Origin: Candidatus Latescibacterota bacterium
GTDB lineage: Bacteria > Latescibacterota > UBA2968
Length of the DNA: 64,000 nucleotides
NCBI GenBank assembly: GCA_965205975.1
Contig: OZ242195.1
Coordinates: forward strand, 4,224,001-4,288,000
Direction of reading: 5' to 3'
Part shown: positions 13,607-22,098 of the stretch, piece after piece
Numbering within the stretch: the stretch's first letter is position 1
How the letters are laid out: each line of letters starts with the position of its first letter
Notes under the pieces: model-generated
Databases searched by the model: none
What the model saw: the letters and a program-made list of their open reading frames with translations, nothing else
What the model was told of the DNA's origin: nothing
Program-made: the position numbers and the translations under genes

Positions 13607-14860
13607 ATGCACGATTATCCATCCCCACAATATACCGCACGGTGTAAGCGTACTCATAGGATCTGTGAACTGAAACCCGATGAGTTTGCGATTTTGGCCG
13701 GGCGGCTTGCAGGTCGAGATTCGCTTTCCGATGAGACGGGGACAGTGTGTCTGGGCTTTAATACGGTGGCCGAGGCAAAGATTGGGGATATTGTGGAGGT
13801 TGAGGGTCGTCTTGAAGGCGATATTTTTTGTGCTTCAGGACTGCGGGTGCTGGTGCCGTCGCGTTCTACAGTCGGGGCTTTATCTCAGGACGTGCAGACG
13901 AATTTGCGCAAGCGCGCCAATATTATCTCGGGGATTCGCCGCTTTTTTGATGAGAAGGGTTTTGTGGAGGTTGAGACTCCTCTGATGGTGCCGCAACCGG
14001 GTATGGAGCCGCATCTCGAGGCGTTTCAGACGCTGTATGAGATGCGTCAGTTTTATCTGCATACGTCGCCTGAGTATGCGATGAAACGTCTTCTTGCGGG
14101 AGGATTTGAACGGATATACCAGGTTTGCAAGGTGTTTCGGCACGAGCCTGTTGGCAGGATGCATACGCCGGAGTTTACGATGCTGGAGTGGTATCGGGCG
14201 TACGCGGATTATACGGATATTATGGTGGATACCGAATATTTGATTGCCGAGCTTGCGACAGATTTATATGGAGAGCCTGTTGTGCGGACGGATGAGTACG
14301 CGGTTGATCTGACGCCGCCGTGGGAGCGTCTTTCTGTGGGGGAGGCGATGTTGCGCTATGCGGGTATTACTGCTGATCCGTATTCGGAGACGGCTGCGTT
14401 TATCAGGCAGGCGGGGCATGAGACGGTTGATAGAGATGATCCGCCAGATGTCGCGTTTTTTAAGGTTTTTCTCGATCGGGTTGAAGCCCATCTGGGTGTG
14501 CAGAAGCCCGCGATTTTGTACGATTACCCCGCGCCGATGGCGGCGCTTGCCAAGCGCAAGTCCAGTGCGCCAGATCTGGCTGAGCGTTTTGAGGTTTATA
14601 TTGCAGGGGTGGAGTTGTGCAATGCGTTTACAGAGTTGAATGATCCGGATGAGCAACGCCAGCGGTTGGAAGAGGAGGCCGCCCAGCGCGTGCGTGAGGG
14701 GAATCCGGCTTATCCGATTGACGCGCGTTTTCTCGCGGCGCTCGAATACGGGATGCCGCCTTCTGGCGGGATTGCGCTTGGGGTGGATCGTCTGGTTATG
14801 CTGCTTACTGGGGCTTCTTCTATAGGCGAGGTTATGGCGTTTCCCATGTCTGATGAATAA
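13607..14860 (+). CDS. epmA: EF-P lysine aminoacylase EpmA (PoxA/GenX)
   Basis: EVETP, PGMEPHL, LHTSPEYAMKRLL, HTPEFTMLEWY, ERFEVY, GIALGVDRL. Confidence 0.9.
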   Translation: MHDYPSPQYTARCKRTHRICELKPDEFAILAGRLAGRDSLSDETGTVCLGFNTVAEAKIGDIVEVEGRLEGDIFCASGLRVLVPSRSTVGALSQDVQTNLRKRANIISGIRRFFDEKGFVEVETPLMVPQPGMEPHLEAFQTLYEMRQFYLHTSPEYAMKRLLAGGFERIYQVCKVFRHEPVGRMHTPEFTMLEWYRAYADYTDIMVDTEYLIAELATDLYGEPVVRTDEYAVDLTPPWERLSVGEAMLRYAGITADPYSETAAFIRQAGHETVDRDDPPDVAFFKVFLDRVEAHLGVQKPAILYDYPAPMAALAKRKSSAPDLAERFEVYIAGVELCNAFTELNDPDEQRQRLEEEAAQRVREGNPAYPIDARFLAALEYGMPPSGGIALGVDRLVMLLTGASSIGEVMAFPMSDE

Positions 14861-14868
14861 ACAAAACA

Positions 14869-14894
14869 GGGTGGAAGATGTGTGTCTTCCACCC
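14869..14894 (-). terminator. Intrinsic terminator for nrdB (possibly also epmA)
   Basis: GGGTGGAAGA-TGTGTG-TCTTCCACCC, followed on the minus strand by TGTTTTGTTT. Confidence 0.7.
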
Positions 14895-14961
14895 CGTATC
14901 AGGCTCTGATTGCCCTTCCCCCGTCAGCCTGAATAGATGTCTTATTGTTCAAGTTTCAGGT

Positions 14962-16143
14962 TTAATCATCCCACTGCAAGGATCCCGCACTTTGATAATC
15001 GGTTACGCGCGTTTCAAAGAAGTTCTTTTCTTTTGCGATGTCGATGGTTTCACCCATCCACGGGAATGGATTTTTCGATCCATATACGCTTTGTAGTCCA
15101 ATCCGTTCCAGGCGGCGATCGGCGATGAATTGCACGTATTCGCGGAATAGGTCTTCGTTGAGGCCCAGTACGCCGTCGGGCACACAATCCCGTGCGTAGA
15201 TGACTTCGTATTCTACGGCTTCGTGGATGAGGTCGTAGATGTCGCGCTGCAGTTCCGTTGTCCATATTTCTGGATTTTCGAGTTTTATGGTGTTGATCAG
15301 GTCGATGCCAAAATTCAGATGTATGGTTTCGTCGCGCAGGATGTACTGGAATTGTTCGCCAATGCCGGTCATGCGGTTTTGCCGATGGAAGGAGAGGATC
15401 ATGACAAAGCCGCTGTAAAAGAAGATGCCTTCCATGATGACGTAAAAGCCGATGAGATTTTTCACGAATTTCTGTATGCCTTCAATGCTTTGTGTTGTAA
15501 AATTGGGGTCCAGTACATCTTCGGTTAGTTCCATCACGAATTTGTCTTTGCCTTCAATGGAGGAGACTTCGTGATACATGTTGAATACTTCGCGTGCGTT
15601 TAGCCCCAGGGATTCGACGATGTAGTGGAACGTGTGCGTGTGGATGGCTTCTTCAAATGCCTGGCGCAAGAGGTATTGCCGGGCTTCGGAGTTTGTGATG
15701 TGTTTGAAGATGGCGAGTACGATGTTGTTGCCGACGAGGCTTTCGCCCGTGCTGAAGAATCCGAGGTTTCGCAAGATGACTTTTCGCTCGGCTTCGTTCA
15801 GCGCATTTGAGCGCCAGAGTTCTATGTCGCGCTGCATGGGCACTTCTGTTGGCATCCAGTGATTGGCGCATCCGTTGAGATAATGCTCCCAGGCCCATTC
15901 GTATTTGAGGGGCATCAACTGGTTCACATCTACCTGCCGACAGTTGAGCAGTCGCTTGTCTTCCGGGTTAATGCGCTTGGTCAAGTCATACGCCTCGCCA
16001 GTGGCACCACAACACAGCGCGGAAGGGGTATTCTCTGCCTCAAAGGGCGCATGAATACCGTTTTGCTGCGCGTGACCACCGTTTTGGTAGTCCATATTTG
16101 CGTGACTTTCAACCTCTTCGTCTTCAAATATGAGCTTAGACAT
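14962..16143 (-). CDS. nrdB: Ribonucleotide reductase beta subunit, class Ic-type (R2c)
   Basis: [16 protein letters not shown] (E134), EEAIHTHTF (F172), [23 protein letters not shown]. Confidence 0.93.
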
Positions 16144-16181
16144 ATCACAACTCCTTTAAAAAAATGAAATATAATAATGGT

Positions 16182-16799
16182 TCAAGCAGTTGCCTCAATA
16201 ATGGCTTCGCGAAATTTCACGAAACTGTGCGAACGGCTACGGTTAGAATCAATATGAATGCCAATGTCTCTGGCAGCCTCCGTCTTGCGTAGTCCAGTTT
16301 TAAAGTAGCCATGTCGCTTCAAGATGCGTTCGAAAGCTTCCCAGGTGCCTCCGCGGATTGCATCGGGGTGGCGATAGCGTGCTTGATTTGGAATTTTTAT
16401 TGAAACCCTCGGATAAGCATTACACACCGCCTGCCAGTCGCCGAAGTACCATGCCTCCAGTTCTTCAATGGCAATGCGGTTGACCAGTTGCCATGGGCGA
16501 CCACGGGCCTGTGAGCGGGTGAGCAATTGAGTCCGAGAAGCAATGTTTTCCAATTTTTGTTTTAATTGTGCGCAATCGTCGTTATCGCAGTCAACGACTA
16601 CGAAGATGCGATAGTTGTCGGGTAACCATTTTGCATAGGCTCGCAGACGATTTTGCAACTTGTCCAATAGGTCTGGCTTCCCCTGAAAAGGATGAATTCT
16701 GAATGTGCATTCCGCGGACAGCATACGCGGCAACAACTCTCGCAAGAAGGCCTCCATTGAGGGTTCTTCGACGAGTAATTCCAGATGTTGTGCCGTCAT
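16182..16799 (-). CDS. DUF4276 family TOPRIM-like putative nuclease
   Basis: LLVEEPS, VVVDCD (DxD), EELEAWYFGD; coupled to the upstream ATPase by a TAATG overlap. Confidence 0.8.
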   Translation of the reverse strand: MTAQHLELLVEEPSMEAFLRELLPRMLSAECTFRIHPFQGKPDLLDKLQNRLRAYAKWLPDNYRIFVVVDCDNDDCAQLKQKLENIASRTQLLTRSQARGRPWQLVNRIAIEELEAWYFGDWQAVCNAYPRVSIKIPNQARYRHPDAIRGGTWEAFERILKRHGYFKTGLRKTEAARDIGIHIDSNRSRSHSFVKFREAIIEATA

Positions 16800-18073
16800 T
16801 ACCCGCGTCCCCCAAAAGGAGGAGTCGGTTCACCGTGTCTGACCAGCGGGTCTCCCAGGTTGAAATATCCTTCCATCCATAGATGGCCGAGATATGCACC
16901 CTCTTCGACAAATTCCGGTATGCCAGGTATATCTGCGGCGCGGCTTGTTTGTGTGTACCCTTGCTCGTCGCGCCAGAGAACGCGTACCTCTTCGGGGCGC
17001 AGTGCGTTCAGGAAAAACGGCGAATGCGTGGTCGCCAATAACTGTGTGCGTTCGCAGGCCGCACGGCATTCTTCGGCAAGTTCCGAAAGCAATCGAGGGT
17101 GCAAGAAGTTTTCCGGTTCTTCAATGCCGATGAAGGGTGGTGGTTCGGGGTCGTATAACAGTACCAGATAAGCCAATATTTTCAATGTGCCATCAGAAGC
17201 GAATCGCGCCAACACCGGGTTGCTGAATGGCGCGTCCTTGATCTGCAACAATAGACGGCCATCGGGCATGATATCTGATAGCACGCGCTCGATACGCGGC
17301 ACGCGCTGGCGTAGCACCTCAAAGATCTGGTTAAGCCGGTCGGGATGTTGCTCTGCGAGGTGCTGTATAACATTGGCAAGATTGTCGCCGCTTCTTGACA
17401 GTCGCTCCTGCGGTCCTGCTTCAGGCTGACCCCGTGCGCTGTTTGCCGATAGGTATGACACATGCCATCCGGTAATGAAGTCGCGCAGTGCTGCTACGTG
17501 CGGGTGAGCGGCAAGTTGTCCCAAGGCATTGACTGCCAGCAGATCGGGCGATTGGAGCGGTACTTCGTTGCGCGGGTCTAATTGGATCATTCCCTCGTTG
17601 TGCCTGTCCAATTCGTCGTCTGGTTGCTCACCGCTGATCGCCCTGCCCTGTCCCTCGCGATAATCGAGGAATCGGAATGGTCTGCCACGTTGTCCGCGCC
17701 GCCATTGTAACCACTCCTCCATTACAACGGGACGATTGCGGTCTTCGTCAATAGCCAGGTGATAAGTGATTAGAGGTGTGCCTGGTCGTTCGCGGTACTT
17801 GAGTTCGATGACAACGGGATTGATGTTGCCTCGCGTCCGCAGTTCTTTGGCGCGTCCACGCTGATCCCAGGCGCGGCGCAAGCCCGACTCGAAGCATTCA
17901 GATAGAAACACAAATACGTCAAATACTGTTGATTTGCCACTGCCATTGGGACCGAGCAACACAGTCAACGGTGTCAATTCCTTGAACTCAACTTCCCGCA
18001 ACGCACGAAAGTTCTGCACCTTCAAATACTCAATTCGCGCCGGTGCTGTGTATTGTGAAGTTGTTAGGTTCAT
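16799..18073 (-). CDS. AAA_21/ABC-type ATPase (conflict-system type)
   Basis: Walker A GPNGSGKS, signature ASDGT, Walker [14 protein letters not shown]-loop TTHSP. Confidence 0.9.
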
Positions 18074-18273
18074 CTCTTTTTAATCAGTGTGACGAGCGCA
18101 AGGATGAGCAATCAGTTCATTTTGCCGACAGATGACTGTATTGAATATCGCTCAAGAAATAAGGTCGCCAGTGCGATGAGTCGCAAGGAGACGCCAGAGG
18201 GAGAGGGGGGATAGGAGATAATTTTAAAGCGATTGGGGAATCGCTTTAAATTATTGCTGCACTTCTATTTACG

Positions 18274-18319
18274 ACACAATATTTGGTAATTAGCGAAAAA
18301 AGAGCACAAAATGTTGTGG
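18274..18319 (-). promoter_or_regulatory. Tandem NrdR-box-like operators
   Basis: ACACAATATTTGGTAA (18274-89) and GCACAAAATGTTGTGG (18304-19) match acaCwAtATaTwGtgt; starts are 30 bp apart. Confidence 0.7.
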
Positions 18320-18332
18320 TAAAGATGTGCCT

Positions 18333-18360
18333 ATTATAGTAAAAGTACTCATAATGTCAA
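18333..18360 (-). promoter_or_regulatory. Consensus sigma70 promoter for ATPase-DUF4276-nrdB
   Basis: Minus strand TTGACA (18355-60) - 16 bp - TATAAT (18333-38). Confidence 0.75.
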
Positions 18361-18460: not shown

Positions 18461-18494
18461 AAAAAGGGAATGCAAAGTGAATTTGCACTCCCTT
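18461..18494 (-). terminator. nrdA intrinsic terminator
   Basis: Minus strand AAGGGAGTGCAAA-TTCAC-TTTGCATTCCCTT followed by a T run. Confidence 0.8.
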
Positions 18495-18535: not shown

Positions 18536-21427
18536 TTACTGACACGCCTCGCATGTGCCATCTGTAATATCGCATGACTCGGCTGTTGGTGCTGGGGTGG
18601 CAGGGGCCTGTTGGTGTACCTGTCCGTTGAGAGGCGCATCTGTTTCAACAGGTGCGTCTTCGCGTTGTACCTGCACATCGCTCGAAGCGGATTTGGACTG
18701 CATCCACCGGGGCTGGACGCCGCGTTTGTTGATGTCCATGGTGGATTTTTCGATCTGGGTCGCGGCGAGGGAGCGCAAATAGTACGTGGTTTTTAGTCCG
18801 CGGATCCAGGCGAGTTTGTACATGTCGTCCAATGCCTTGCCGCTGGGGGCTGCGATGTACAGATTTAGCGATTGGCCCATGTCGATCCACTTTTGCCGGC
18901 GGCTGGCGCATTCGATGAGCCATTCGGGTGCCACTTCAAACGCGGTTTTGTAGAGGTCTTTGATGTCTTGTGGGATGCGGTCGATTTCCTGGACTGAGCC
19001 GTCGTAGTATTTCAGATCATCTACCATCTGGTCGTCCCACAGGTCGCGCGCTTTTAAGGCATCGACCATGTAGGGATTTAATACTGTGAAGTCACCGGAC
19101 AGATTTGCTTTTACATACAGGTTGCGATACATCGGCTCGATGGATTGCGTCACGCCCGAGATGTTCGATATGGTGGCGGTCGGGGCAATGGCCATGACGT
19201 TGCTGTTTCGCATGCCGTGTTTGGCGACTGCCTCGCGCACGACATTCCAGTCCAGGCGTGCGGATGTATCGACTTCGAGGTACGCCCCGCGTTCCTGTCC
19301 CAACACGGCCAGGGTATCGATGGGCAATATGCCGCGGTCCCATTTTGAACCGATGTAGGAATGGTATGGGCCGCGTTCTTCGGATAGGTGCGTTGAGGCG
19401 AGGATCGCGTAATACGAGATCATTTCCATGCTGATGTCGGCAAAGTCAACCGCGCCCTGTGAATCGTAGGGCAAATTCAACAGGTAGAGCGCGTCCTGAA
19501 ATCCCATTACGCCCAGGCCCACGGGGCGGTGGCGTTTGTTGGATGTGGCGGCTTCTTCTGTGGGATAGAAATTGATGTCGATCACGTTGTCCAGCATCCG
19601 AAGCGCTGTCGATATCGTGTCTTCCAGCAACTCGCGGTTGAGGCCCGTGGGTGTGATATGTGCCACGAGGTTTACAGAGCCGAGGTTGCATACCGCGGTT
19701 TCTTCGCGGCTCGTGTTCAACAGTATTTCAGTACACAAGTTTGAGCTGTGGACAACGCCCGCGTGATCCTGCGGGGAGCGGATATTGGACGGGTCCTTAA
19801 ATGTGATCCACGGATGCCCGGTTTCAAAGAGCATGGACAACATTTTTCGCCACAATTGCACGGCGTCGATCTGGCGATGTTGTCGCAGTTCACCGGCTTC
19901 GGCCTTTTGTTCATACGCGATGTATTTCTCTTCAAAGGCTTTGCCGTACAAGTCGTGCAGGTCGGGGACTTCATCCGGGCTGAACAGGGTCCAGGATCCC
20001 TTTTCCATGACGCGCTTCATAAACAGGTCGGGAATCCAGTTGGCCGTGTTCATGTCGTGCGTGCGGCGGCGGTCATCACCCGTGTTTTTGCGCAACTCCA
20101 TAAAATCTTCGATGTCCAGGTGCCAGGTTTCCAAATAGGAGCATACCGCCCCTTTGCGTTTTCCGCCCTGGTTGACGGCGACTGCTGTGTCGTTTATGAC
20201 TTTCAAAAATGGAATGACGCCCTGGCTTCTGCCATTTGTGCCGCGGATATAGGAATTTGTCGCGCGCACATTGGTCCAGTCATTGCCCAGGCCGCCAGCC
20301 CATTTGGACAATTTGGCATTGTCAGATACCATTTTGAATATGTGTTCCAGATCGTCTTGCGCGGTTGACAGATAACACGAGGACAACTGCGGGTGCAAGG
20401 TGCCGGCATTGAACAGGGTGGGGGTGGCAGAGACAAATCGGAAGGAAGAGAGTACTTCGTAAAATTGAATGGCACGCGCTTCTTTGTCGTCTTCGTCCCA
20501 AGCGAGGCCCATGGCCACGCGCATCCAGAAAAACTGCGGGGTTTCAATGCGGCGCTCATTGACGTGGAGCAAATAGCGATCAAAAATCGTTTGTACGCCC
20601 AGGTACTCAAAGTCTTCATCGCGCTCGGGTTTTAAGGCCACAGATAGACGCTCCAGATCATAAGTGCGCAATTTGGGATCTAAGCGGTCATTTTCAATGC
20701 CCGTTTCAATAAATTTTGCGAATCCCTGCCGACATGCAGTGTCTCTGTCTTCAAGCGCGGGTTTGAACCCGAGGGCGTGGCGATAGATCACGTTGAGGAG
20801 CAACCGCATTGCGACTTTGCTATAGGCGGGTTCTTTTTCCACGCGGCTGCGCGCTGATAGTATCATGGCGCGTTCGATATCGTCGGGTTTGATGTCGTCG
20901 TAGAGGGAGCGATATATTTCATTGAGCAGGGCCTGGGGATCTACCTCGTCATCGCAAACGGCAAATACCTCGGTGCGAATGCGGTTGGCGTCCAGGGGTT
21001 CGCGCTTGCCGTCGGCGATTTGCACACGGAGTTTGGGCGCGTTGGGGTCCTGGGGTTCTTCTTTGCCGCTGAGTACGCGGGCTTTTTTGTGGTCTTCTCG
21101 ATAGACGATGTAGCGCCGCGCGACCGCAAAGTGGCCTGCACGCATTAGATGGATTTCGACTTTGTCCTGAATGCGTTCGACATCTACGCTGTCATCCGGC
21201 TCGTGCAATTCCCCTTCAATTTCAGCAATAACAGCGTCGGTGAGTTCCGACACATCGGTTCCAATTTTGGGCGGCAGTGAATGATCGTTGGACAATCTCA
21301 ACTCGGCTCTAAATGCCGCCTCAATCGCGCGTTCAATGCGCGCGCGGTCAAACTCAACGACCCGACCGTCGCGTTTGCGTACCGCAAAATCAACTGCTTC
21401 CAGTAAAGTGTCAACTATTTCGGCCAT
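18536..21427 (-). CDS. nrdA: Ribonucleotide reductase alpha subunit with two N-terminal ATP cones
   Basis: VRKRDG cone plus a second degenerate cone, [28 protein letters not shown]-terminal CEAC. Confidence 0.95.
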
Positions 21428-21727
21428 GCATGCCTCCCAAATGCGAAACTACTCCCGCGCGTTCTGACAGAAAAAATAAACCCATAACCGCTGCATAAAA
21501 ACCACAACGGGGAGGGTTGGAAAATGAGCGTGGGGGTTTGTTTTCTAAGACAACAAATCGGGAAAACATAAGGTTGGAAATCCCAATCGCAGAGGAGGGG
21601 AGAGACTGCGAATAATGGATTTGTTTTCCCGAAAAAAGTAATAACTTACGCAGTTGTAATGATTTGTTTGAGTTTGCAAAAAATAGCTAAAGAGGGAGAG
21701 AGGATAAATTTTCACTAACAACTGCAA

Positions 21728-21760
21728 GCACAATATATGGTGGTCTGTGAAAAAAGTCAA
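21728..21760 (-). promoter_or_regulatory. nrdA promoter with an overlapping NrdR box
   Basis: TTGACT (21755-60) - 17 bp - TATATT (21732-37) on the minus strand; GCACAATATATGGTGG (21728-43) covers the -10. Confidence 0.7.
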
Positions 21761-21983
21761 TACCAAATGTGCGTAAATTTAACTTTACCAGCATTGTGTT
21801 GTGCGTGCGTTCAATTGCTTGTATATGCGAGATTTAGAGCGAGAATTTGGGGCTGGGAGAAACGGGGTTCACATGCGTCACGGAGAAACAATACATTTTT
21901 TTAATGTATTATTTTTTTTCTAAAAAAACCTTTGACGCGGTGGGTAAAATGCCGAATATTCTGGGTGTTGATAGGGGTGGATT

Positions 21984-22075
21984 GGGCGGGCACGGGGAAC
22001 GGGACGGCACAGGGGCCGTCCCCTAAAATGATATTGTTAATCTGGTTTTGTAGGGGCGACCCCCTGTGGTCGCCC
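21984..22075. repeat. Inverted REP doublet (REPIN-like) plus a partial REP
   Basis: GGGACGGCACAGGGGCCGTCCCCTAA (22001-26) faces GTAGGGGCGACCCCCTGTGGTCGCCC (22050-75). Confidence 0.7.
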
Positions 22076-22098
22076 GCTAAAAAGAAAGGATCGGAGAG

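Follow-up and report, generated by a model that had tools for sequence, protein, structure and literature searches.

The stretch of DNA analysed here (the window, 64,000 nucleotides) carries the two subunit genes of a class Ia ribonucleotide reductase (RNR) with an ABC ATPase gene and a DUF4276 gene, together referred to as the pair, placed directly between them. Its host belongs to an uncultured, sponge-associated lineage of Latescibacterota. The features of the locus are the following, with NrdR boxes scored by matches to six key positions.

21760-21732, minus strand: nrdA promoter, TTGACT-17-TATATT, with its own NrdR box pair (21728..21775)
21775-21760 (5/6) and 21743-21728 (6/6), minus strand: nrdA NrdR boxes, 16-bp linker
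18536..21427, minus strand: nrdA, class Ia RNR alpha subunit of PRK07207 type with ATP cone; left flank of the hotspot
18464..18494, minus strand: nrdA terminator-like hairpin (intrinsic), 13 pairs, U-tail, dG -17.5
18333..18360, minus strand: internal sigma-70 promoter, TTGACA-16-TATAAT, 12/12 match, read as a compensatory nrdB promoter
18274..18319, minus strand: predicted tandem NrdR boxes (18319-18304 and 18289-18274), 14-bp linker, 6/6 key positions each
18223..18250, no strand assigned: AT-rich inverted repeat in the leader, without a coding-strand U-tail, arms partly kept across cassettes
18099..18199, minus strand: remnants of another AAA_21/DUF4276 pair (a piece of its ATPase gene at 18199-18150, the beginning of its DUF4276 gene at 18128-18099)
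16799..18073, minus strand: HEC-01A-type ABC ATPase (AAA_21), 424 aa, from PADLOC and motifs
16182..16799, minus strand: HEC-01B-type DUF4276 TOPRIM protein, 205 aa, from PADLOC, Pfam and fold
14962..16143, minus strand: nrdB, class Ia RNR beta subunit of PRK07209 type; right flank of the hotspot
14866..14897, minus strand: nrdB terminator, from a sequence scan

The ATPase and DUF4276 reading frames overlap by one base (stop on start), nrdB begins 38 bp downstream of DUF4276, and the interval holds no further gene, nrdA and nrdB being the direct neighbours of the pair. The original prediction had described this gene order, a terminator belonging to nrdA (stem 18494-18464), a consensus promoter and two NrdR-box matches just downstream of it, all of which hold, coordinates included. 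An nrdR gene, which the proposed NrdR control presupposes, is present in the genome (TIGR00244, above cut-off). The genome measures 5.56 Mb, and nrdAB is the sole RNR found in it, with nrdA as the single PF02867 match genome-wide. The -10 box of the nrdA promoter is present in 19 of the 20 loci with upstream DNA included.

The internal promoter is one of 10 perfect TTGACA-16-TATAAT sites in the genome. Both boxes that follow it carry C4, A6, A8, T9, T11 and G13, the key positions of the two 16-bp NrdR boxes in RNR promoters (PMC13584703, PMC12051234), and the core of each is AT at 7 of 8 positions. Besides this box pair, a single other genome-wide, located upstream of a DnaA-like ORF, reaches 12/12 at 29-33 bp spacing, which is weak evidence alone because about 1.2 are expected by naive chance; with 100 pairs reaching 11/12, genome-wide rarity alone does not discriminate. 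We took as stronger tests a local shuffle, where the box pair was matched in 4 of 20000, and conservation, where all 20 boxes of the 10 genomes with this promoter score 6/6 and no column is invariant in the 16 nt that follow box 2. A linker of 14 bp separates the boxes here and in 8/10 of these genomes, as against 15 bp in 2/10; 14 bp lies at the lower limit of the lengths bound: the canonical linker is 15-16 bp, 14-17 bp are bound (PMC12051234), and at 14 bp the binding of four NrdRs was 2-17-fold weaker than the optimum (PMC12051234 Table 5). Judged from these features of the DNA, a putative NrdR operator upstream of the pair is credible. It shares with the known NrdR regulon the two 16-bp boxes and their six key positions, but differs in being a second operator inside the nrdAB locus, in its 14-15-bp linker, and in the non-RNR genes that precede nrdB.

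We refer to the internal promoter and its NrdR boxes as the cassette. A duplication of the nrdA promoter was rejected as its source, blastn giving no match between the cassette and the nrdA leader. A weak 9/12 promoter match just before nrdB (16198-16171) is disfavoured as the real nrdB promoter, its -10 box being degraded in G014 and G015. The scan also gave two weak 6-pair terminator-like matches inside the pair. The original prediction had named the inverted repeat at 18250-18223 as a place where transcription might stop; termination there is unlikely, as the repeat has no U-tail on this strand, its arms also occur in nrdB-only alleles, and RNA-library contigs cross it. Two such libraries of a related strain, X1 and X3, each gave one 3.5-kb contig that runs from the boxes through the pair and nrdB (18316 to 14918 and 14904, respectively); they come from one study, and contigs of this kind cannot prove a transcript start or a single transcript. 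Read depth on these contigs is 30 and 23, as compared with 12-13 and 3-9 on most of nrdA, and most of epmA is uncovered; depth was not used for ranking genes. In X7 the cassette is connected to nrdB and the pair is absent. Co-transcription of the pair with nrdB, as originally proposed, is likely.

Both proteins of the pair have HEC-01 components as their best PADLOC matches, the ATPase HEC-01A (PDLC04182, E 1.1e-162, residues 12-408) and the DUF4276 protein HEC-01B (PDLC04202, E 6.4e-86), and Pfam recovers DUF4276 in the latter (E 3.5e-30). The ATPase has a Walker A motif at 41, a signature SDG at 293, Walker B IEEPE at 317-321, and H350. The acidic set of the DUF4276 protein comprises E11, D70-x-D72 and E113/E115; across 73 DUF4276 sequences E11, D70, E113 and E115 are invariant and D72 is kept in at least 90%. 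A phmmer search of PDB sequences with this protein gave 0 matches. Its AF2 model (pLDDT 91.8) predicts a TOPRIM fold with the conserved Glu and DxD, and has its top structure matches in OLD (6njw/6nk8; Z 10.7, rmsd 3.6, 167 aligned), the match to AriB (8v46_D) being Z 8.3, rmsd 4.0, over 160 aligned residues. The complex model of the two proteins scores an ipSAE of 0.67 versus 0.23 for the best control, a score that may mirror likeness to the solved AriA-AriB complex. With dN/dS values of 0.07-0.32 for the ATPase (five intact main-clade copies) and 0.06-0.18 for DUF4276, the pair is, by this measure, under purifying selection in the genus, and ATPase identity is kept at 69-82% across many phyla. 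Assignment of the pair to the ABC-ATPase/OLD-type TOPRIM modules is supported.

HEC-01 is a two-gene system, ABC ATPase then TOPRIM, for which an embedded position within Hma has been described (Payne et al., bioRxiv 10.1101/2024.01.29.577857; PADLOC), and the single representative tested gave no protection against a coliphage panel (10.1101/2024.01.29.577857). The gene order is the same here, but the pair is embedded in an RNR operon. In MAD3-MAD4, a separate ATPase and a Toprim-like subunit are toxic only as a complex, with MAD4 straddling the ATPase dimer (PMC13662399), and the Mad4 family has been named as DUF4276 (PMC12065111). Our complex model likewise predicts a TOPRIM subunit that straddles an ATPase dimer, and MAD4 D12/D81/E83/E119/E121 parallels E11/D70/D72/E113/E115 by spacing only, unaligned. 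However, the MAD3 equivalog NF047739 scores 120.5 bits here versus a cut-off of 420, and no other mad genes lie in the interval, the methyltransferase/MAD7-MAD8 operon being absent. By analogy, the pair is likely to act as a MAD3-MAD4-like DNase. With PARIS (AriA-AriB; PMC11464382) the pair shares an ABC ATPase along with a TOPRIM protein, the AriB fold match, and a partner modelled across the ATPase dimer. The TOPRIM protein here is, however, DUF4276 and not DUF4435 (none at E<=0.01 in Pfam), with 205 aa versus 305 in the matched chain; no AriB model is among its 14 PADLOC matches, and the AriA model scores far below HEC-01A on the ATPase. Trigger-dependent release, tRNA cleavage and the sensing of Ocr are further traits of PARIS. 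In OLD class 1 and Gabija, ATPase and TOPRIM are fused in one chain, and Gabija adds a helicase partner, whereas they are two ORFs here, without a further gene. The pair had been likened to PARIS, OLD and Gabija; the OLD-type TOPRIM module and the AriB-like fold stand, while a DUF4435-type AriB is absent, the fusion is lacking, and HMMs favour HEC-01.

Synteny, to which the original prediction looked for variation in cargo, does vary: among 21 congeneric genomes the nrdA-nrdB gap ranges from 25 bp to 11,093 bp, and 17 carry extra DNA. Annotated cargo consists mostly of nuclease, toxin-antitoxin, NTPase and IS genes; IS transposases occur, and no integrase was found among 38 cargo proteins scanned. 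The flanking nrdA and nrdB are conserved, and DUF2961/epmA beyond them are kept wherever the locus reached that far (not shown in G017). Sister genomes differ at the slot, and the closest core-tree relative of the window genome (G000), G002, is empty there, with only 27 bp between the genes. Mapped onto the core tree, the cassette undergoes 7 changes and the pair 6. The ATPase tree rejects the rpoB clades (AU p<1e-5), and ATPase distances correlate with those of core genes at rho -0.07 to -0.21 (6 genomes) versus 0.49-0.63 among core genes (17 genomes); core genes partly disagree among themselves, and recombination is therefore genome-wide. Cargo at the slot is likely swapped by recombination through the conserved flanks, and the best reading of the junction is a minimal-mobile-element-like defence hotspot in the sole RNR operon found. 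Minimal mobile elements have been described as variable gene content between conserved flanking genes (PMC3787668), and core defence hotspots are described in P. aeruginosa (cDHS; PMC10250203). As far as these accounts go, the likeness lies in conserved flanks, variable content, differing sisters, an empty allele and phylogenetically discordant cargo. The slot differs in lying within the sole RNR operon found, in being seen in one genus only, and in that its terminator alleles have a second NrdR-boxed promoter, which splits the slot in two.

Cassette and pair were scored in the same 21 genomes. The cassette occurs in 10, five of them without the pair (G008, G010, G003, G004 and G007), where box 2 lies 260-342 bp before nrdB and the alleles have in common a leader sequence of their own that does not match the pair. 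The pair occupies the slot in 10 genomes, in five without the cassette (G020, G014, G018, G001 and G017), and in the divergent subclade it is present while the cassette is absent. These counts speak against the proposal that the NrdR wiring exists for the pair. Nor is there support for the supposition that the pair is hard to lose: it is broken in 4 of its 10 genomes, with the TOPRIM gene cut in all 4, it is missing from the site in 11 of 21, and the gap of G002 is empty. The close subtype of the pair in the genus is found only at this slot, directly before nrdB, in both subclades (10/21), and always downstream of the promoter of nrdA or of the cassette; such long residence at one site could mean that the position is favoured. 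All 10/10 cassette genomes have a terminator-like hairpin upstream of the cassette (nine by the terminator filter, G010 by folding, its hairpin being related), and the same filter found none in the 11 cassette-free intervals of the genus, even those of 8-9 kb. Because alleles move as blocks, this link is not independent across genomes. An independent-pairs test of cassette versus pair gave p 1 with 6 pairs and is underpowered. Cassette queries matched in 8 of 22 relatives, at the nrdA-nrdB site only. The distribution of alleles suggests that the internal promoter likely belongs with nrdB rather than with the pair.

DUF4276 follows the ATPase in 78 of the best 80 homologue loci. Only 6 of these 80 have nrdA or nrdB in the flanking DNA that was fetched: five are congeneric, and in the sixth the nrd genes are convergent and some 4 kb distant. 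NrdR boxes upstream of these 80 loci were seen at one congeneric locus and in one unpaired, chance-level case only, and no NrdR box pair was found upstream of 6 other DUF4276 loci of G000 (two ATPase starts estimated). Outside the genus the pair thus appears essentially unlinked to nrd genes. In a Nitrosomonas-centred family sample nrdA directly precedes nrdB in 30/30 loci (the best 30 of 59 matches, 61 genomes); of 6 further family-level Latescibacterota loci, 4 have no room for cargo, one has about 600 bp unresolved and one lacks upstream DNA. No nrdA-nrdB hotspot was found in these two sets searched outside the genus, and a plasmid search with NrdB added nothing.

The explanation we consider probable is that the junction is a slot for defence-type cargo likely swapped via its flanks, with the NrdR-boxed promoter compensatory for nrdB and the pair a passenger. 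The range of gap lengths, the differing sisters and the kinds of cargo establish the slot itself. The empty or read-through allele would be ancestral, because family outgroups have no cargo genes there, and co-oriented cargo, the pair included, can sit in a read-through nrdAB operon. Where read-through is stopped by a terminator or by antisense cargo, the nrdB gene of the sole RNR would need its own promoter; the association is observed, and the cassette with its NrdR boxes would keep nrdB regulated like nrdA. As a passenger, the pair would be co-transcribed with nrdB and likely respond to NrdR, a by-product of position; its transcription would rise when NrdR leaves the DNA (ATP-only loading, low dATP), and it is likely already expressed during growth. 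In the predicted complex the TOPRIM subunit would lie across the ATPase dimer and, as in MAD3-MAD4, act as a DNase that depends on metal; its targets would be phages or other mobile DNA, and its trigger is likely post-translational.

Selected nucleotide gating, in which the slot is favoured because low-dATP derepression of NrdR raises the dose of a toxic nuclease during infection and keeps it low otherwise, seems unlikely to us. The conserved boxes agree with it, as do their presence at both promoters able to drive the pair and the residence of the close subtype at one site; dose could matter, given that MAD3 and MAD4 are toxic only when in complex with each other (PMC13662399), and activation of GajA by NTP/dNTP depletion (PMC8136825) shows such a cue in use in defence. 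However, the cassette persists without the pair, which is often lost or broken; in 74 of the best 80 homologue loci the flanking DNA fetched contains no nrd gene, and 6 paralogous loci have no box pairs. The pair shares its X1/X3 contig with nrdB and so is seemingly not silent in situ, a weak argument; the triggers of PARIS and Gabija are post-translational (PMC11464382, PMC8136825), and the tested HEC-01 gave no protection. The broader form, in which the junction is a selected, metabolite-gated expression socket whose interchangeable nuclease or toxin cargo is induced together with RNR as dATP falls, whether because a phage replicates or because defences of the cell itself deplete nucleotides, is doubtful to the same degree. 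If it held, anti-phage defence would be among the functions that NrdR regulates, and activity of the HEC-01 pair might depend on its native wiring.

That the cassette instead arrived as the cargo's own promoter from an nrd-like locus of another organism, to be captured later by nrdB, with pair-less alleles as deletions, is very improbable. Deletions behind the cassette do happen, as the relics in the G000 leader attest (matching the intact G013 pair at 86% across 50 bp and at 90% across 30 bp), and the cassette lacks likeness to the nrdA leader; but the shared leader of pair-less alleles and the pair without cassette in the divergent subclade argue otherwise, the boxes fit nrdB and, apart from the one congeneric locus and the one chance-level case, were not seen with this pair elsewhere among the best 80 loci, and the cassette has so far been seen only before nrdB, never before a free-standing pair. 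Least probable of all, we believe, is that the pair is selfish, addictive or decaying cargo that does nothing against phages and persists because it is linked to an essential operon. The 4/10 broken copies and the non-protective HEC-01 are in its favour, but dN/dS of 0.06-0.32 with intact motifs, the ATPase identity across phyla, and co-resident defence-type genes speak against it.

On the compensatory-promoter reading, the locus offers a clean natural case of an essential-looking operon that accommodates cargo through the gain of another promoter under the same regulation. Selected or not, the NrdR regulon likely takes in defence-type genes at this locus, and we found no earlier report of this in the literature searched. 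The junction would also be a new defence hotspot in this lineage, where several unannotated cargo genes are candidate new systems. Because empty, read-through, cassette-only and cassette-with-pair alleles all occur in nature, the gating question can be tested directly.

The interval between nrdA and nrdB is probably a recombination-fed defence hotspot within the nrdAB operon, in which an NrdR promoter compensates nrdB and an HEC-01 ATPase–TOPRIM pair, likely a MAD3–MAD4-like DNase, travels as a passenger. As a passenger, the pair would be regulated along with nrdB, which does not imply selection for such control. The nrdA hairpin, consensus promoter, two NrdR-like boxes, ATPase, DUF4276 and nrdB at 38 bp of the original prediction are all seen, and nrdR is found in G000, the window's own genome.

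Features of the nrdA–nrdB locus in the window
21427–18536, minus strand: nrdA (NF005544, above cut-off)
18494–18464, minus: U-tailed hairpin 3′ of nrdA
18360–18333, minus: promoter TTGACA-16-TATAAT
18319–18304 and 18289–18274, minus: two NrdR-like boxes
Downstream of the boxes, minus: AAA_21 ATPase gene, 424 aa
One-base overlap with the ATPase gene, minus: DUF4276 protein gene, 205 aa
38 bp downstream of the DUF4276 gene, minus: nrdB (NF005550, above cut-off)
14897–14866, minus: terminator 3′ of nrdB
13607–14860, plus: EpmA-like gene (lysyl-tRNA synthetase paralogue), convergent with nrdB, a right-hand neighbour kept across the genus

A palindromic repeat of ~80 bp (~22000–22080), REP/MITE-like and with dozens of genome copies, lies upstream of the nrdA promoter. 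G000 is a 98%-complete, single-contig genome with one PF02867 match and no NrdD found; nrdAB is therefore the sole RNR found in it, and nrdB is likely essential. The same nrdB is present in 20/20 congeneric genomes (G001–G020), which were scored together with G000 for the pair and for the cassette, i.e., the internal sigma-70 promoter with its two boxes.

State of the nrdA–nrdB interval (n = 21 genomes)
Empty, 25–30 bp: G002, G005, G006, G009
Cassette without pair: G008, G010, G003, G004, G007
Cassette and pair: G000, G016, G012, G015; G019 with the pair broken
Pair without cassette: G014 and G017, intact; G020, G018, G001, broken
Other cargo only: G013, G011

Cargo at the site is variable, with empty, cassette, pair and other-cargo alleles among the 21 genomes, and the claim that the pair is hard to lose does not hold, as it is absent here in 11 of 21 genomes and broken in 4 of 10 copies. 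In the family outgroups G021 and G024, nrdA and nrdB are separated by short gaps that contain no cargo ORFs. ATPase copies of at least 78% identity occur in 9/20 congeners, every one at this site, and paralogues at 39–45% identity occupy other genomic positions. On an rpoB+gyrB+secA tree the cassette takes seven changes and the pair six, and the sister of G000 is G002, with an empty interval. With eight genomes, G000+G014, G016+G020 and G016+G020+G012 are rejected as clades by the ATPase data, and G000+G016 and G012+G015 by the rpoB data (AU p<1e-5 for each). ATPase and core-gene distances show no correlation (rho -0.07 to -0.21, n=6); core genes correlate with one another at 0.49–0.63 (n=17), which means that background recombination is also present. 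The G000 interval is a mosaic of segments common to G010, G008 and G016/G019, and its leader, the DNA after the boxes, carries relics of a second AAA_21/DUF4276 pair. This movement fits the definition of a minimal mobile element in the accessible text of PMC3787668. No report of an nrdA–nrdB defence hotspot or of NrdR-controlled defence genes was found in the literature searched, which covered few subscription papers and no supplements.

In G017 (locus L046), an nrdB 5′ fragment (~160 codons) and its ribosome-binding site are present as a duplicate upstream of both the HEC-01 pair and the complete nrdB, possibly as a scar of unequal recombination. In the fragmented assembly of G007 (L042), nrdB is apparently split near codon 30–37, by assembly error or real frameshift. 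The TOPRIM gene is the damaged one in all five broken pairs (G020, G019, G018, G001, and the second subtype in G015), and none of the five has an intact TOPRIM gene lacking its partner ATPase.

The simplest reading of the cassette is that it rescues nrdB once read-through is blocked. Counted over genomes that are not mutually independent, hairpins passing our filter (≥8 bp, ≥4 GC, dG at or below -11, and either U-rich or no more than 260 bp from the nrdA stop) lie upstream of the cassette in 9/10 cassette genomes and in none of the 11 cassette-free intervals of the genus. Those of G003 and G012 have no U-tail, and the tenth cassette genome, G010, has an imperfect U-tailed hairpin (-13.9 kcal/mol). 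Annotated antisense cargo precedes the cassette in five genomes; in alleles lacking the cassette, all annotated cargo except one transposase in G001 is co-oriented.

NrdR boxes have six conserved positions, with both boxes required and C4/G13 critical (PMC13584703, available part), and each box of the G000 cassette matches 6/6. This match is kept in 20/20 boxes of ten homologous cassettes, where invariant columns number 12/16 in box 1, 11/16 in box 2, 4/14 in the linker and 0/16 after box 2. Mononucleotide shuffling of the 462-bp interval gave a 12/12 pair in 4/20000 cases. Genome-wide rarity is a weak argument, since at 29–33 bp spacing G000 holds two 12/12 pairs, with ~1.2 expected naively, and 100 pairs at 11/12. 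The short linker (14 bp in 8/10 cassettes, 15 bp in 2/10) counts against genuine operators; NrdR binds at 14–17 bp, 14 bp being 2–17-fold weaker than the optimum (PMC12051234, accessible text). NrdR binds DNA in the presence of ATP+dATP, whereas ATP alone gives no binding, according to the available portion of 10.1101/2024.05.27.596032. The nrdA promoter has its own box pair (linker 15–16 bp; 6/6 box over the -10, partner 4–6/6) in 19 of 20 loci, three loci without upstream DNA being excluded; the exception is G017, where no pair was seen. At the nrdR promoter (G000:C1:1844253-1844307, outside the window), a perfect sigma-70 promoter contains a 6/6 box with a 5/6 partner 31 bp on, a sequence that suggests autoregulation. 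The second 12/12 pair (G000:C1:4180045-4180089, also outside, 13-bp linker) lies upstream of an ORF that we take, by eye from its N-terminus, to be DnaA-like; NrdR boxes at dnaA have reportedly been noted in older comparative work. An inverted repeat at 18223–18250, with arms partly conserved across cassettes and a loop that is C-rich or G-rich depending on the allele, may be an additional protein-binding site or a hairpin that has flipped.

A strain ~97% identical to G000 is present in sponge metatranscriptomes, from which the assembled contigs of four of 18 RNA runs were compared with the locus (libraries X1 and X3 from one study, X7 from another, and X5). X1 and X3 each hold one 3.5-kb contig that runs from 18316, 17 bp past the internal -10, through the leader, both pair genes and nrdB and stops just short of the terminator, and an nrdA contig of X1 ends at 21714, 18 bp past the nrdA-promoter -10. 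In X7, 75 cassette bases are joined to nrdB with the pair absent (contig start ~18314, by arithmetic), and X5 has a direct nrdA–nrdB joint and an nrdA-to-ATPase-leader joint; these joints agree with alleles in the genomes. The contigs, which cannot prove a start or a single transcript, hint that the internal promoter is active.

PADLOC assigns both pair genes to HEC-01 (ATPase E 1e-162, DUF4276 6e-86), an ABC ATPase and TOPRIM system whose single tested representative, which may not be close to the window pair, gave no protection (accessible part of Payne et al., bioRxiv 10.1101/2024.01.29.577857). In alignments of 70 of the best 80 homologue loci, the window copy and second-subtype copies, conservation is seen across 72 ATPases for the Walker A, signature, Walker B and His motifs, and across 73 DUF4276 proteins for E11, D70-x-D72 and E113/E115. 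For five of the six intact copies (divergent G017 omitted), dN/dS is 0.07–0.32 for the ATPase and 0.06–0.18 for DUF4276, versus 0.04–0.11 for nrdA/B. The AF2 model of DUF4276 (pLDDT 91.8) best matches OLD TOPRIM domains and AriB. A predicted complex of two ATPases (residues 11–405) and one TOPRIM has an ipSAE of 0.67 versus 0.23 for the best control, with at least 90% of contacts agreeing between runs and a partner pLDDT of 88. The calibration mark is reached by 116/157 solved versus 2/215 mismatched pairs, counts only roughly valid for the window pair, and the passing score may stem from resemblance to solved AriA–AriB.

That nucleotide gating of the pair through NrdR was itself selected seems unlikely to us. 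The pair does reside fixedly before nrdB, GajA senses nucleotide depletion (PMC8136825, available text), and toxicity of MAD3–MAD4 depends on the complex, all of which would favour such gating. MAD3–MAD4, the nearest biochemistry, is a 2:2 complex and metal-dependent DNase, toxic only on co-expression and showing no effect of ATP at up to 5 uM in the accessible part of PMC13662399; the Mad4 family is DUF4276, like the window's TOPRIM protein (PMC12065111, in part). The PARIS trigger is post-translational (PMC11464382, available portion). No upstream NrdR box pair was found at the six other DUF4276 loci of G000 (two starts estimated). The 80 best of 536 confirmed homologue loci, many with flanks shorter than 8 kb and queried for this RNR subclass only, have DUF4276 3′ of the ATPase in 78 cases and nrdA/nrdB in the flank in six, five congeneric and one from Thiobacillus, where the nrd genes are convergent and ~4 kb away.

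Other cargo in the interval was scanned with Pfam (38 proteins, 17 without a match) and PADLOC (29 proteins). Matches include a second HEC-01 subtype, Panacea, HigB with HTH-M78, HEPN/MNT-type pairs, PIN, HNH, GIY-YIG, KAP NTPase (PDC-S20), SIR2 (PDC-S65), three IS families, and a three-gene block whose products are 383 aa, 763 aa (an E2/E1/JAB fusion) and ~250 aa long (L029:6192-8483, L036:4167-5318, L042:3253-4017). This block, found in G016, G004 and G007 and truncated in G012, resembles ubiquitin-like anti-phage systems, possibly 6A-MBL, a system with ubiquitin-related elements; its 383-aa gene had no match in the scan. A recurrent gene of 335–354 aa (L045:4893-5957, with relatives in G018, G004 and G017) has a faint nucleoside 2-deoxyribosyltransferase match (E 0.001) and is a candidate nucleotide-related defence gene.
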